Shown piece by piece: positions 11,088 to 17,107 of a stretch of DNA of 41,329 nucleotides; position 1 is the first letter of the stretch; every line of letters begins with the position of its first letter. Position numbers and translations under genes: made by a program. Below the pieces are notes generated by a model. It was given only the letters and a program-made list of their open reading frames with translations, ran no database searches and was not told where the DNA came from. The stretch is from a virus. The stretch lies in the UHGV virus genome UHGV-0077431. One strand, given 5' to 3'.

Positions 11088-11112
11088 AAACCCGACGCGG
11101 TGGTCGGGTTAG
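11088..11112 (-). terminator. Terminator ending the cI operon (CCCGAC stem, U5 tail on minus strand); possibly bidirectional
   Basis: Hairpin cccgac-gcggtg-gtcggg with TTTTT on minus-strand RNA directly after the stop of 11109..11300. Confidence 0.6.
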
Positions 11113-11300
11113 AACAGGAGTTTAACTGCGGCTAGGGTCAGACCTGTGATTGTAAAGATCGCACCAACTATCGACCAAGTCTGAATCCTGAGTTCCTTTT
11201 GTAGGTCTTCTCGTGTCGCGTAATTAGACTTGATAACAGCAACATCAGTCTTAATGGACGCGATATCTACCTCAAGCTGCCTAACTCTTGCTTCAAGCAT
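11109..11300 (-). CDS. Small coiled-coil protein with C-terminal transmembrane helix (63 aa)
   Basis: GGAGGTGA 5 nt before ATG at 11300; heptad-like [23 protein letters not shown] then hydrophobic [22 protein letters not shown]. Track ORF extends to 11423. Confidence 0.55.
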
Positions 11301-11367
11301 ATCATCACCTCCGCCATCTCCGCCTCGTCGTGTTATTGCAGGTAGTTCACTATTAAATGGTACTACA

Positions 11368-11715
11368 TTATTTTGCGGCGTCGGCATTTTTTTCATCTTC
11401 CGTTTTTGCCGGGAATTTTTCATTTACCCAGTTAAGAACTGAAAACGCATTTATATGTGTTTCATTTCCACAATTGTTGCATATTAGTGAAAAGTAATAC
11501 TGGTTAGCAGTATCGGAATAAATGCTTTTTTCAGTAAAAACATTTACATAACTACCAAGCGCCATAGTGCATGGCATTCCAACACTCGCACTGACTTGAG
11601 GCACCGTTAACCTGTCATGCCCACATAGCGTGCATTTTAGATATATATTCTTTTCTGAGAAGTAAGAGACTAACATGTCCATGTTGATCCTTTCGAACCC
11701 CTGTTCACTCGCCAT
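11368..11715 (-). CDS. Cys-rich putative zinc-binding protein (115 aa), first gene downstream of cI
   Basis: CTLCGH ... CNNCGN motifs; GAGGA 8 nt before ATG. Confidence 0.55.
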
Positions 11716-12549: not shown

Positions 12550-12798
12550 ATGAACGCTGTAGAAATTGCAGTAGAAGCTGTCGGTGGACAAACAGCAGCC
12601 GCAAAAATTTGTGGTTTATCCCCGGTAGCTGTTCACCGCTGGGTTAAAAACGCCTGTCTTCCTCGTACCGAATACACAAAAAAAACGGAATACGCGGAGT
12701 TACTTGCTTCTAAATCAGCAGGTCAGTTCACTGCTGACTGGTTGCTGGAAAATGCTAATCCTGATCGTCCAGGAAAGGTTAACGATCCATCAGCTTAA
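12550..12798 (+). CDS. cro: Cro-like repressor (Cro/YdaS family HTH)
   Basis: HTH GGQTAAAKICGLSPVAVHRW; GGAGAG SD; position opposite cI. Confidence 0.75.
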   Translation: MNAVEIAVEAVGGQTAAAKICGLSPVAVHRWVKNACLPRTEYTKKTEYAELLASKSAGQFTADWLLENANPDRPGKVNDPSA

Positions 12799-12826: not shown

Positions 12827-13390
12827 GTGGATAAACAACACTGGAAAGTAGAGCGCCAACCTGCATGGCTGGTGGCTGCAATCAAAAGAACTATTGCCGA
12901 AATGCCAGGCGGTTATACAGAAGCTGCTGAATGGCTTGGCCTGTATCGCGCTGGAAAACTCTCAACGGATGCGCTCTACAACAGACTGCGTAACGAAGGA
13001 GATCAAATTTTCCCGCTTGAGTGGGCGATGGTGCTTCAGGATGCAAGTGGTACTAAGTATGTCACCGATGCGATAGCCCGCCGTAGTGGTGGCGTCTTCG
13101 TTCCGCTGGTGGAGGTTGATGATCTTGATAACGGCGATATCAACCAGCGCCTGATGGAGTCCATCGAATGGATTGGTAAACACTCGCAGTACCTGCGTAA
13201 GGCAACCGCTGACGGGGTTATTGATCCGGCAGAACGTGAGCAGATTGAAGAGAACAGCTATCAGGTGATGGCTAAGTGGCAGGAACATTTGACGCTGCTT
13301 TTCCGTGTGTTTTGTGCGCCGGAAAAAGGTGACGCCCGCGAGTGTGCAGCTCCGGGCGTCGTGGCAGACAAATCTTGTATGGAGAAGTAA
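12827..13390 (+). CDS. CII-like regulatory protein (YdaT-like)
   Basis: Position after cro; GTG start with GGGGA SD; family call from memory only. Confidence 0.55.
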   Translation: MDKQHWKVERQPAWLVAAIKRTIAEMPGGYTEAAEWLGLYRAGKLSTDALYNRLRNEGDQIFPLEWAMVLQDASGTKYVTDAIARRSGGVFVPLVEVDDLDNGDINQRLMESIEWIGKHSQYLRKATADGVIDPAEREQIEENSYQVMAKWQEHLTLLFRVFCAPEKGDARECAAPGVVADKSCMEK

Positions 13391-13562: not shown

Positions 13563-13736
13563 ATGCGCGAAGTTAACCGAAGGTTCAAAGACCACAGAGG
13601 GATCCCCGTTCGGGTTATCCGGTGGGAGCCTGAAACGCGGCGTGTTATCTACCTGCGAGCAGGGTATGAGCACGAATGCTTCAGCCCACTTGAGCATTTC
13701 AGGCAAAAGTTCAGGGAGATAGAGGATGAGAGCTAA
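13563..13736 (+). CDS. Small hypothetical protein (57 aa, MREVNRRFKDHRGIPVRVIRWEPETRRVIY...)
   Basis: ATG with AGGAAGG upstream; protein-like composition; not in ORF track. Confidence 0.45.
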   Translation: MREVNRRFKDHRGIPVRVIRWEPETRRVIYLRAGYEHECFSPLEHFRQKFREIEDES

Positions 13737-13764
13737 CCCAATGAAAAAAAACTTAACTGAGAAT

Positions 13765-14145
13765 TTATCCTGCCAGGGCATTAATCCTCAATTTGATAGC
13801 CTTTTCTTCAACTTTGAACCTCTTTTTCAGGTCTTCGAGTTCTTTGGCGAGAGCAATGTATTGATCCGCAACTCCATATTGAGCAATCAGTCCGGTTGCC
13901 AGTTTAGCATCGGCGTTTTCTGGATCATCAACATCGATGATTTTTCCATATTTTCCGGTAATAACGGCAATACGGTGCTTGCACATCGTGCCCATTTCAC
14001 CAGCAATGCAAGTGCATTCTATTTCGAGGTTACCGCTCTGATCGCTGATGGTTACATCGTAAAAACCATCACCGCTGCTGCTGTTAGCCAAAAGTTGGTA
14101 GATCACGTTGTATCTCCTTATTTTTTTGTAGCGGTTAACGCTCAT
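13765..14145 (-). CDS. SWIM-type zinc-finger protein (126 aa) with C-terminal coiled coil
   Basis: CxCx(n)CxH motif (ECTCIAGEMGTMCKHR); GAGGT 5 nt before ATG at 14145; opposite orientation to flanking genes. Confidence 0.6.
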   Translation of the reverse strand: MSVNRYKKIRRYNVIYQLLANSSSGDGFYDVTISDQSGNLEIECTCIAGEMGTMCKHRIAVITGKYGKIIDVDDPENADAKLATGLIAQYGVADQYIALAKELEDLKKRFKVEEKAIKLRINALAG

Positions 14146-14436
14146 CCCAACCTCATTATTGATCATGCTTTATTCCAGGTATACACTGTCTCGGCAGCGG
14201 CAAAATCCGTTGCCGGGATTGGCGTCCTGGAATTGATTAAAGAGCACAACCGCGCTCTGGCGGTTTTTTTGTGCGAAATGCATTGCTACACCCTGATTAT
14301 GGTGGGGCGTGCAGGGGCATCGAAAGATGCGCCGGCTTCTTTAGTCACCGGTTACGCCAACCCTGCACGTCTCACCACCAATGAGATTGGCGTCTCTTGT
14401 GGTGAGTTGTTAAAACTGACTAAAGAGGCAGCCATC

Positions 14437-14982
14437 ATGGCTACGATCCCAACCCTCGTTCAACCTGAAATTTCCGTAATTAACGGTCAGGCCGTTACCT
14501 CCTCTCTGGCTATTGCCGACTTCTTCACTAAGCGTCACGATGACGTACTGAAAAAAATCCGCGCTCTGGAGTGTTCGCTAGAATTCACTGCCCGCAATTT
14601 TGCGGTGAGTGAATACACCGACGCTACAGGCCGCAAACTTCCCTGCTATCAAATCACCCGCGATGGCTTCGCGTTCCTCGCTATGGGCTTCACTGGTAAG
14701 CGAGCAGCACAGTTCAAAGAGGCATACATCACAGCCTTCAACAGGATGGAAAATGCGCTTCACGGGGCAAGTGATAATTTCTGCGCAGCGCACAATGCCC
14801 ACGTTGTTTACCTCTACATGTCTGAAATTCACCGCGTCTGGTTAGAACAACTTTATCCGATGTTGGTTTCTGTTCAGTCTCCGCTAGCTTCATCACTCTA
14901 CGACTACATCAACGATGGTGTATTCGTTGCTGGGTTGGTGGACTCGGAACTGAACAAAAAGCACAAGGAGGTGCGAAAGTGA
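14437..14982 (+). CDS. Rha-family phage regulatory protein
   Basis: N-terminal motif NGQAVTSSLAIADFFTKRHDDVLKKI; AAAGAGG 8 nt before ATG. Confidence 0.7.
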   Translation: MATIPTLVQPEISVINGQAVTSSLAIADFFTKRHDDVLKKIRALECSLEFTARNFAVSEYTDATGRKLPCYQITRDGFAFLAMGFTGKRAAQFKEAYITAFNRMENALHGASDNFCAAHNAHVVYLYMSEIHRVWLEQLYPMLVSVQSPLASSLYDYINDGVFVAGLVDSELNKKHKEVRK

Positions 14983-15845
14983 GCACTAAATTAACCGGCT
15001 ACGTATGGGATGGTTGCGCGGCGTCGGGCATGAAGTTGTCTAGTGTCGCGATCATGGCTCGCCTCGCTGATTTCAGCAGCGATGAGGGCGTGTGCTGGCC
15101 GTCCATTGAAACTATTGCTCGCCAGCTTGGCGCAGGGCCTAGCACGATCAGAACGGCAATCGCAAAGCTTGAAAAAGATGGCTGGCTCACGCGTACACAG
15201 CGCCGTAATGGTAACCGTAATGCGTCGAACGTGTACCGCCTGAATGTAGCGAAACTTCAGGCTGCCGCATTTTCTCAACTGTCAGATTCTGACACGTCAA
15301 AATCTGACGCATCAAAATTTGACGCCTCAAAAACTGACCCGTCGAAATCCGTCAAAAACGGCGGTTTTGACCCGTCAGAATCTGGCGGGGATCCGTCAGT
15401 AAAATCAAAACAAGATCCACAAGTAACTTCAAAACCCTCTTGTCCGGTTGCTGCGCAACCAGACCCTGAGGTTGTGATTACTGATCAGGCCAGACAGGTC
15501 TTGTCTTACCTGAACCAGACAACTGGCTCACGCTACCAGGTATGCAGTACGTCGCTGGAGAATATTCGCGCCCGTCTTCGGGAACAATTCACGGTTGATG
15601 ACCTGTGCCTGGTAGTGGATTACAAAAATGCCGATTGGCGTGATAGCGAGCAGGCGCAATACCTCCGCCCGGCAACTCTGTTCATTCCAAAAAACTTCCC
15701 TGGTTACCTGCAAAGCGCGACCAAATGGTCCAGTGCTGGCCGGCCTGAACGCGTTAACGGCAAATGGGAGACTAACTCAGCCAGCCGCGCAAACTTCCAG
15801 AGTGTTGATTACTCACTGCCAGAAAATTCGGGGTTCCGTTCATGA
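14979..15845 (+). CDS. Replication initiation protein (O-like; N-terminal winged helix, acidic Ser-rich linker, conserved phage C-terminal domain)
   Basis: GTG start with AAGGAGGTG at spacing 5, overlapping Rha stop; iterons inside the coding sequence. Confidence 0.75.
   Translation: MSTKLTGYVWDGCAASGMKLSSVAIMARLADFSSDEGVCWPSIETIARQLGAGPSTIRTAIAKLEKDGWLTRTQRRNGNRNASNVYRLNVAKLQAAAFSQLSDSDTSKSDASKFDASKTDPSKSVKNGGFDPSESGGDPSVKSKQDPQVTSKPSCPVAAQPDPEVVITDQARQVLSYLNQTTGSRYQVCSTSLENIRARLREQFTVDDLCLVVDYKNADWRDSEQAQYLRPATLFIPKNFPGYLQSATKWSSAGRPERVNGKWETNSASRANFQSVDYSLPENSGFRS
15290..15381. repeat. Iteron array (about six 13-mers TGACnCnTCAAAA at 15 bp periodicity) with adjacent A/T-rich tract: candidate origin
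   Basis: Direct repeats tgacacgtcaaaa, tgacgcatcaaaa, tgacgcctcaaaa, tgacccgtcgaaa, tgacccgtcagaa; A-rich 15395-15440. Confidence 0.6.
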
Positions 15846-16414: not shown

Positions 16415-17107
16415 ATGAATCAGTTAACCGCAAAGGGTGTTGTGACAATGTCCAGCCGTGAAATTGCCAGGCTGGTGCAGAGCAAACATGGTGATGTGAA
16501 GCGCTCAGCTGAGCGCCTTGAATCTGCTGGTATTTTAACCGCGCCGTTGGCGCACACCCCCTACGAACACCCGCAAAATGGGCAAACATACGAGGAGTAT
16601 TGGTTCAACAAACGTGATTCTCTGGTGATCGTTGCCAGGATGTCGCCAGAATTTACCGCCGCCGTTGTCGATCGCTGGCAGGAGCTGGAGAACAGTCAGG
16701 CCGTCAGTGTGCCACAAACATTGCCGGAGGCATTACGCCTCGCGGCTGATCTGGCCGAGCAGAAAGAACAACTCAGCCAGCAGTTAGCCGCTGCTGCACC
16801 GAAAGTTGAATTTGTCGATCGGTACTGTACTGCCAAAGGCTCAATGTCATTCCGCCAGGTAGCAAAGCTATTGCAGGCTAAAGAAACAGATTTCCGCTTG
16901 TTCCTCATTGAGAGCGACATCTTGTACCGGCTAGGCGGAGTGCTGACACCGCGGCACCAGCATATTGCGGCCGGGCGGTTTGAAGTGAAAACCGGCACTA
17001 CGAGTGAAACAAACTACGCATTCAGCCAGGCGCGTTTTACGCCCAAAGGCATCGAGTGGATCGGCGGCCTGTGGACGGCACACATCGCTAAGGGGCATGC
17101 CGCGTGA
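16415..17107 (+). CDS. Phage antirepressor (AntA/Rha-like N-terminus, KilA-C/ANT-like C-terminus)
   Basis: N-terminal VVTMSSREIARLVQSKHGDVKR; C-terminal FRQVAKLLQAKETDFRLFLIESDILY. Confidence 0.65.
   Translation: MNQLTAKGVVTMSSREIARLVQSKHGDVKRSAERLESAGILTAPLAHTPYEHPQNGQTYEEYWFNKRDSLVIVARMSPEFTAAVVDRWQELENSQAVSVPQTLPEALRLAADLAEQKEQLSQQLAAAAPKVEFVDRYCTAKGSMSFRQVAKLLQAKETDFRLFLIESDILYRLGGVLTPRHQHIAAGRFEVKTGTTSETNYAFSQARFTPKGIEWIGGLWTAHIAKGHAA

Follow-up and report, generated by a model that had tools for sequence, protein, structure and literature searches.

A conserved SWIM zinc-finger gene nested backwards within an open, coupled antisense frame of a lambdoid prophage early operon

How can a gene that points against the early operon of a prophage be accommodated there, and what does its product do? 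The question is raised by a small SWIM zinc-finger gene in the virus genome UHGV-0077431, a stretch of 41,329 nt that was analysed whole and is called the window here. The element is an e14/SfV/ST64B-like lambdoid prophage in which the gene forms a cassette lying backwards in the rightward (PR-type) early operon. From cro through the tail genes essentially all genes are on the plus strand, and the SWIM gene opposes cro, cII, Rha and the replication genes, as the original prediction had stated, as well as a DUF4222 gene. The compared loci and lineages carry L-numbers, L001 being Escherichia coli RM8082 and L003 E. coli GXU-23-25-310. The account we favour, with modest confidence, has four parts: a genuine inverted SWIM cassette, a translated carrier open reading frame (ORF) on the opposite strand, competition between promoters, and a protein linked to replication or to the DNA ligase LigA. 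The open frame running through the SWIM gene in the direction of the operon had escaped the original prediction.

The SWIM gene is genuine, and its frame evolves under purifying selection. Among six lineages with 67–90% nucleotide identity, the ratio of nonsynonymous to synonymous substitution rates (dN/dS) in this frame is 0.07–0.18, and codon positions 1, 2 and 3 have 40, 31 and 91 variable columns, respectively. In the codon-aligned frame opposite SWIM the ratio is 0.9–2.2; purifying selection on both members of an antisense pair was thus not observed. The product carries the motif C-x-C-x8-C-x-H (ECTCIAGEMGTMCKHR), with cysteine codons at 14016-14014, 14010-14008 and 13983-13981 and a histidine codon at 13977-13975, the predicted zinc ligands being C31, C33, C42 and H44. 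The Pfam SWIM profile (PF04434) matches residues 16–49 (14061-13960) with 26.0–26.3 bits against a gathering cut-off of 19.6, which bears out the motif assignment made by the original prediction. The signature is that of the SWIM zinc finger, reportedly described by Makarova, Aravind and Koonin in 2002, and the predicted core likewise consists of two strands followed by a helix. In PHROGs the protein falls into the uncharacterised family phrog_13130 (E = 1e-15), and RefSeq labels the RM8082 copy a 'SWIM zinc finger family protein'.

Within the minus-strand ORF at 13765-14166 a product of 126 aa had been proposed; the likely length is 113 aa. Homologues in other lineages are 113 aa long, and their first residue matches V14 of the 126-aa version. 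All 10 loci with a complete gene share the start position, with GTG or TTG as the codon and ATG in L102. A purine-rich Shine–Dalgarno sequence precedes the start by a few nucleotides in every lineage (AAGGAG or GAGGAG in 8, AAGGAA in L102 and L103). Upstream in-frame ATGs at 14145 and 14166, which would give the 126- and 133-aa extensions, occur in two lineages only, and these starts were dropped in favour of the conserved GTG with its AAGGAG. A candidate transcription start near 14148 would leave the ATG at 14145 nearly leaderless and exclude the one at 14166.

Opposite the SWIM gene, in exact codon register with it, runs the carrier ORF of 418 codons. To keep this frame open, SWIM must avoid the codons TTA, CTA and TCA. 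TTA or CTA occurs in 0 of the 68 leucine codons and TCA in 0 of the 33 serine codons, against local backgrounds of 15% and 20%, respectively. The antisense frame is stop-free in 8 of 9 lineages, one of them with a G+C content of only 0.37, at a synonymous divergence (dS) of 0.3 to more than 2. Given the protein sequence, the chance of a stop-free antisense frame is 0.05–0.11 per gene. The carrier frame is open in non-homologous flanks too.

Both ends of the carrier are tied to the neighbouring genes. Its ATG overlaps the upstream stop codon as ATGA in L001, L007 and L102 and by 8–11 nt in the window, L004 and L010. The carrier stop and the next start are fused as NTGA in the window (GTGA, 14979-14982), L001, L004, L007, L008 and L010. 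The window, L001, L004, L007, L008 and L010 thus have such NTGA junctions or short overlaps at each end of the carrier, and L102 has one at the 5' end; Shine–Dalgarno-like purine runs precede the overlapping starts. The first 145 aa of the carrier product match no Pfam or PHROG family. A frame that is kept open and coupled while its sequence is free indicates that translation itself matters, and we infer that selection acts on the translation of the carrier and not on its product. Relatives without SWIM have an unbroken ORF that runs from the DUF4222 stop across isrK and C4 into Rha, so the cassette seems to have been fitted into a pre-existing chain of coupled translation.

The purpose of carrier translation is probably the avoidance of Rho polarity. 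Untranslated bacterial RNA is a substrate of Rho, and the plus strand over the insert is C-rich and G-poor, with a C/G ratio of 1.0–1.9 against 0.7 upstream. Beyond sequence conservation, the mechanistic steps are ones that we infer. Ribosomes following RNA polymerase over the otherwise untranslated C-rich stretch of about 400 nt would prevent Rho-dependent polarity. Where isrK is present, ribosomes on PR-derived transcripts would also block its terminator hairpin and allow readthrough. Transcripts from the isrK promoter lack the upstream ATG and would therefore fold into the regulatory RNAs. The bridge would permit expression of the downstream replication genes after induction and, by analogy with L005, L008 and L009, of the late antiterminator Q; Q was not identified in the window itself and is seen downstream in related prophages.

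Some loci carry further features in or beside the carrier. In L004, L005, L011, L017 and L018, about 100 nt beyond the SWIM start, the carrier ends with '...LAMGFTGK...', a fragment of a Rha domain; a deletion seems to have taken isrK, C4 and most of Rha there, and the frame has stayed open as far as the start codon of the replication gene, on which it ends. In L001 (2773-3003), 5' of the cassette, the carrier encodes '...LYDRINDAAALAGLINSLLNSSAVRGR', which resembles the C-terminus of Rha at the same locus, '...LYDYINDASALACLINLLLNPSEVRGRK'; this likeness in RM8082 suggests a partial duplication or a recombination scar. A second inverted gene adjoins SWIM in L010 (2213-2651, flipped). It encodes 96 aa with no Pfam match, is mostly but not fully covered by the operon-direction ORF, and overlaps the carrier stop as GTGA.

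The cassette is rare. Its close clade comprises 9 clusters among 5.8 billion proteins and a single locus, in Phytobacter, among the 185,579 species representatives of GTDB. Seven IMG/VR contigs carry it, four of them near-identical to the window, and tblastn against 50,697 GenBank phages found no SWIM homologue. The Rha/isrK region is present in about 120 complete E. coli genomes, and among the matches listed only 2 extend across the SWIM segment. In KE40-type prophages (E. coli KE40), which are otherwise collinear, DUF4222 is joined directly to isrK, C4 and Rha. Relative to its sister prophages, SWIM is therefore an insertion/deletion cassette, and its G+C content is 0.44 against 0.50–0.53 in cII, DUF4222, Rha and the replication gene.

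In every context found, all in enterobacterial lambdoid prophages, the gene is inverted within the early-right operon. It lies between DUF4222 and Rha in the window and L001; between DUF4222 and the replication gene, with a Rha remnant, in L004, L005 and L011; between a DEAD-box helicase and Rha or primase in L007–L009; just past cro in L010; and after cII in L102. The annotation of the locus is not uniform. RefSeq gives RM8082 the SWIM gene plus a 318-aa Rha with a 108-nt overlap (L001 3043-4272), and PGAP gives GXU-23-25-310 a 499-aa 'Rha family transcriptional regulator' with no SWIM gene (L003 2773-4272); the two are incompatible.

An AlphaFold2 model built from an alignment of 111 sequences reached a predicted local distance difference test score (pLDDT) of 95 and a predicted template modelling score of 0.80; with 7 sequences only, pLDDT was 53, and the larger alignment was used instead. 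Strands were modelled at residues 2–8, 15–23 and 26–31 and helices at 34–37, 43–50, 67–75 and, as one long element, 79–112. The protein is thus predicted to combine an N-terminal β-sheet bearing the SWIM zinc finger with a long C-terminal helix, in line with the coiled coil that had been read from the sequence. Matches in BFVD were other phage 'SWIM zinc finger' proteins. The original prediction regarded a free-standing SWIM protein as unusual, but a hidden Markov model search returned 348 clusters (50% identity, E ≤ 1e-3), mostly of 105–125 aa and matching end to end. Among 41 diverse members sampled, 33 match Pfam SWIM and nothing else consistently. Y16, C31, C33, A35, G36, C42, K43, H44 and the C-terminal helix are conserved in the family, and the four zinc ligands are invariant or nearly so over the 111 sequences.

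The helicase and MEKK contexts first invoked for the SWIM domain proved less informative than two other links, to ligA on chromosomes and to replication modules in phages. Alignment of the phage clade with a ligA-linked subfamily by hhalign gave a probability of 98.8% (E = 1e-16, 106 columns), which establishes full-length homology to a ligA-associated family of small SWIM proteins. Scanning metagenomes with one subfamily yielded 74 loci, 44 of them with at least 1 kb of upstream sequence. In 39 of these 44, ligA lies upstream on the same strand at a median gap of 51 nt, a statistic that comes mostly from one branch, plus four independently sampled members. A distant member in a Kiritimatiellae genome is adjacent to and convergent with ligA, and another in a Desulfobulbaceae genome lies 2 kb from it. 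One metagenome contig has ligA, a 175-aa ORF and SWIM in this order; in another, zipA, ligA and SWIM overlap. The ligA–SWIM operon was seen in L028–L100, L019, L023, L025 and L026, and in one subfamily a conserved, unannotated ORF of about 175 aa stands between the two genes. Partner ORFs beside the distant homologues L010, L021, L022, L025 and L027 had no Pfam matches, and a literature search found nothing relevant on this family, on phage SWIM proteins or on a link between SWIM and ligA.

Phage-borne members occur in early-operon or replication modules, or with a YqaJ exonuclease gene and an RNase T-like gene as neighbours; in one case the surroundings are a Mu-like tail region and the neighbour is a Rha-ANT gene. 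Phage copies share with the ligA-linked family a similar length, the conserved residues and the C-terminal helix. They differ in not lying beside ligA, in being inverted in prophage early operons and in being acidic instead of mildly basic. Five of six phage-clade proteins have an isoelectric point (pI) of 4.6–5.4 and the sixth 6.3, with net charges of -1 to -7, and the window protein has a pI of 4.9 and a net charge of -4.4; the family median pI is 8.4. The phage protein thus appears to be an acidic branch of a family that, on chromosomes, shares operons with ligA. Its most likely function, and the least certain part of our account, would be binding to some component of replication or nick sealing, either a protein or a DNA intermediate. 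A classical DNA-binding repressor is less likely, as the acidity argues against operator binding.

The gene could instead be a defence or superinfection-exclusion moron, expressed from the prophage to block incoming phages, for which the nesting would be incidental. An inverted, variably present, rare cassette of lower G+C content with a small acidic product is what such a gene might look like, and in Pseudomonas phage Fc02 a lysogen-expressed exclusion gene does lie antisense to an early lytic gene (PMC9936078). PADLOC even reports a weak match to the candidate system PDC-S62 (22.9 bits), but this covers the SWIM domain only (profile positions 34–86, 53 of 566). The defence-system assignment was rejected on the ground that the match is at domain level and NCBIfam returned nothing. 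Effector, membrane and nuclease domains are absent from the protein, and its chromosomal relatives sit in housekeeping ligA operons, not in defence islands. Specific support for a defence role was not found, and we consider this explanation unlikely.

The supposed 270-bp divergent spacer at 14146-14436 turned out to be filled by isrK, its candidate promoter and C4 (Table 1). The isrK and C4 RNAs of the window are ordinary members of their families, and Rfam also finds both in L001, L008, L009 and KE40, the last of which lacks SWIM. The C4 loop CUUCUUUAGUCA is complementary to UGACUAAAGAGG (14418-14429) in the Shine–Dalgarno region of Rha, with 12 pairs, one of them G-U. In addition, ACGCCAA in C4 is complementary to UUGGCGU, which occurs both at 14388-14394 in the leader and at 14220-14226 in the isrK loop. 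These complementarities were read straight from the sequence; folding of whole-RNA duplexes gave unrealistically long duplexes and was not used. As the Rha leader and the isrK loop share UUGGCGU, isrK looks like a decoy for C4. Both Rfam matches, followed by an anti-repressor with a C4-pairing ribosome-binding site, make up a C4/isrK anti-repressor control module, and by analogy isrK and C4 would control the downstream Rha anti-repressor.

The module has described counterparts. It follows the c4/a1b1/a2b2 logic of the P1/P7 c4-icd-ant immI module, and it resembles isrK-orf45-anrP of Gifsy-1 in its isrK-type RNA with terminator, its C4-type RNA and its anti-repressor, whose ribosome-binding site is complementary to the C4 loop in the window. 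In Gifsy-1, isrK has its own promoter and some transcripts pass its terminator, and the short isrK RNA activates anti-repressor translation, leading to prophage induction (PMC4825925). The described isrK/C4 modules do not include SWIM; the window differs further in that a single long ORF joins the RNA region in frame to Rha. Translated in this frame, the isrK–C4 region (14182-14466, +) matches the Pfam family 'Phage_ASH' (PF10554). Conserved RNA genes read as protein may account for much of the 'Ash protein' family; alternatively, the family may represent a leader ORF, like orf45 of Gifsy-1, that is really translated. A second anti-repressor-type gene, with a Rha N-terminal and an ANT/KilAC domain, lies at 16415-17107 (+) in the same early operon, about 1.4 kb past the first Rha.

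Table 1. Features of the SWIM cassette and its surroundings in the window.
Feature	Position	Strand	Details
cro-like gene	12550-12798	+	
cII/CP76-like gene	12827-13390	+	
DUF4222 gene	13563-13736	+	PF13973, E = 1e-15; last 11 nt overlap the carrier ORF start
Carrier ORF	13726-14982	+	418 codons; antisense through SWIM, through isrK and C4 ('Ash'), into Rha
SWIM zinc-finger/C-terminal-helix gene	13765-14106	-	113 aa; GTG start at 14106, stop codon 13767-13765
SWIM Shine–Dalgarno sequence	14114-14119	-	AAGGAG, 7 nt 5' of GTG 14106
Candidate SWIM promoter	14155-14183	-	-35 TATACC 14183-14178, 17-nt spacer, -10 AATAAT 14160-14155; start near 14148
Candidate isrK promoter	14159-14187	+	-35 TTGATC 14159-14164, 17-nt spacer, -10 TACACT 14182-14187; +1 near 14194
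isrK-type small RNA (a1/b1-like element)	14194-14270	+	RF01394, 74.6 bits, cut-off 50
Intrinsic terminator of isrK	14248-14270	+	
C4 antisense RNA	14295-14382	+	RF01695, 81.2 bits, cut-off 45
Rha-family anti-repressor/regulator gene	14437-14982	+	ATG at 14437, Shine–Dalgarno AGAGG; Phage_pRha E = 6e-31, TIGR02681, phrog_821
Phg_2220_C replication protein gene	14979-15845	+	3' of Rha

The candidate promoters of SWIM and isrK lie within the same 30 bp in opposite orientation, so that RNA polymerase could use only one of them at a time, and the two should compete. In the window, L001 and L008/L009 neither has shifted in position or spacing; L007, which has lost isrK, retains the leftward one in a form nearer consensus. 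The +1 of the isrK candidate coincides with the first base of the Rfam isrK model. We propose that SWIM is transcribed leftward from a weak promoter interdigitated with that of isrK. Activity of PR after induction would silence SWIM by convergent transcription, and under repression of PR, transcripts from SWIM would continue into DUF4222 and cII in antisense. SWIM would accordingly be a lysogen-phase gene. A GATC (Dam) site at 14161-14164 lies inside the palindrome TTGATCAA, which forms the isrK candidate -35 and abuts the SWIM candidate -10, and a Dam-type methyltransferase is encoded in the same operon of the related prophages L001 and L004.

Leftward units are familiar from related positions. 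The oop RNA of lambda, a non-coding RNA of 77 nt that is active in the lysogen, is a leftward unit between cII and the replication genes. In P22, the Mnt repressor, a basic ribbon-helix-helix protein also active in the lysogen, is transcribed divergently from Pant, the anti-repressor promoter. The SWIM gene shares with oop a leftward orientation between cII and the replication genes, and with mnt its divergence from an anti-repressor promoter; it differs in encoding an acidic zinc-finger protein and in having no detectable terminator.

The likeness to Mnt raises a second alternative, that SWIM binds the shared promoter region and represses isrK, C4 and Rha in the lysogen. The gene is divergent from isrK, with overlapping candidate promoters, in the window, L001, L008/L009 and probably L102; the palindromic TTGATCAA is conserved in the shared element; and a distant homologue in an unrelated Mu-like phage is also near a Rha-ANT gene. 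The protein is nevertheless acidic, and the divergent arrangement, found in four lineages, is combined with a SWIM fold in place of a basic ribbon-helix-helix. SWIM is also intact and under purifying selection where isrK, C4 and Rha are deleted or absent (L004/L011, L007 and L010), which weakens a role at the isrK promoter, and the family's relatives are linked to ligA and do not lie beside regulated promoters. A maintenance regulator of this kind is therefore rather improbable.

Several observations tell against the account of a translated carrier, competing promoters and a ligase-linked protein. The promoter candidates came from a relaxed scan and agree with the consensus at no more than 8 of 12 positions; a stricter consensus scan of 14146-14436 gave no promoter, and no intrinsic terminator was found on the minus strand past the SWIM end at 13765. 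For the protein, the searches made here found no chromosomal homologue in the enterobacterial hosts. With this, and with the phage copy not beside ligA, the ligase link amounts to guilt by association at 20–30% identity. For the carrier, a minimal-parsimony count of codon switches alone gives p ~0.05, and because the lineages share ancestry, the p value for stop avoidance lies between about 1e-3 and 1e-6, according to how independence is assumed. L103, a 1.1-kb contig with no recognisable flanking genes, has 2 antisense stops. Finally, the high-G+C phage relatives L021 and L027 are stop-free without clean coupling; their open frames were treated as chance.

The original prediction had also called the gene moron-like and suggested that the spacer might hold a promoter of its own. 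The moron reading holds in part. The cassette is absent from the collinear KE40, deviates in base composition and is always inverted, and its looser-scan promoter candidate (14183-14155) is kept in four lineages, whereas the stricter scan yields none and a terminator is missing; the gene thus has most, but not all, of the marks of a moron.

The carrier statistics bear on a third alternative, in which the stop-free antisense frame is a by-product of chance or codon usage and early transcription crosses the cassette untranslated. Among 114-codon windows of ordinary genes at these loci, about 10% have no stop in that frame, and the shared ancestry of the lineages, the parsimony count and the stops in L103 would fit this view. 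Other members of the SWIM family are stop-free in antisense in only 3 of 69 cases, however, with a mean of 5.6 stops, and in 1 of 20 at matched G+C. Fisher's test of 7/7 against 1/20 gives p = 9e-6, or 0.002 with the three deep lineages only. The frame has also stayed open despite the synonymous divergence given above, extends open into non-homologous flanks, and begins and ends exactly on the neighbours' stop and start codons in five genomic contexts. We therefore regard chance as an improbable source of the open frame. That the long plus-strand ORF is the real gene, an N-terminally extended Rha with SWIM as a chance shadow, as the 499-aa PGAP call in GXU-23-25-310 implies and the open, well-coupled frame would allow, is scarcely credible, because the N-terminal plus-strand product matches no Pfam or PHROG family, the SWIM profile, the zinc ligands and the 348-cluster family back the minus frame, and the codon-position and dN/dS analysis rules out both a spurious SWIM gene and the 499-aa 'Rha' as the sole gene here.

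The nesting of a conserved gene in a coupled ORF unconstrained in sequence is a variant of antisense gene overlap. Its nearest published relative that we found is the olg1/gene 10 pair of Pseudomonas phage Fc02, in which a lysogen-side gene and an early lytic ORF likewise occupy opposite strands and both partners appear functional (PMC9936078). The window differs in that its gene is fully nested and in that the carrier, free in protein sequence, is constrained to stay open and coupled.

Two further small genes may be expressed in the lysogen. They lie at 11109-11715 (-), directly past the cI-like repressor and on its strand, as possible accessory genes. The first encodes 115 aa with two CxxC pairs and a weak CpXC match below cut-off; the second, which overlaps it, encodes 104 aa with a C-terminal hydrophobic segment.

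Together, our results describe a natural case in which selection appears to favour the translation of a frame and not its product. This bears on how operons handle Rho polarity and on how antisense 'shadow' ORFs are to be read and annotated, the same locus being annotated in RefSeq in two contradictory ways in RM8082 and GXU-23-25-310. The position of a protein gene back to back with the isrK/C4 switch of SOS-independent induction suggests promoter competition as an extra layer of control. More tentatively, and with considerable doubt, we hypothesize that carrier ORFs of free sequence could be a general device by which a coupled operon without N-type antitermination tolerates an inverted gene, with ribosomes accompanying RNA polymerase over the insert and past the isrK terminator, and that the nested SWIM protein could be a phage-adapted, acidic form of a widespread, undescribed partner of bacterial LigA, with which the prophage manipulates nick sealing or replication of the phage's own or of incoming DNA. 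Small SWIM proteins encoded in operons with ligA also emerged from the analysis as a large family, on which we found no literature. Should its members bind ligase or nicked DNA, an enzyme essential for replication would turn out to have a new accessory factor, and the prophage protein could be regarded as a candidate modulator of that enzyme.

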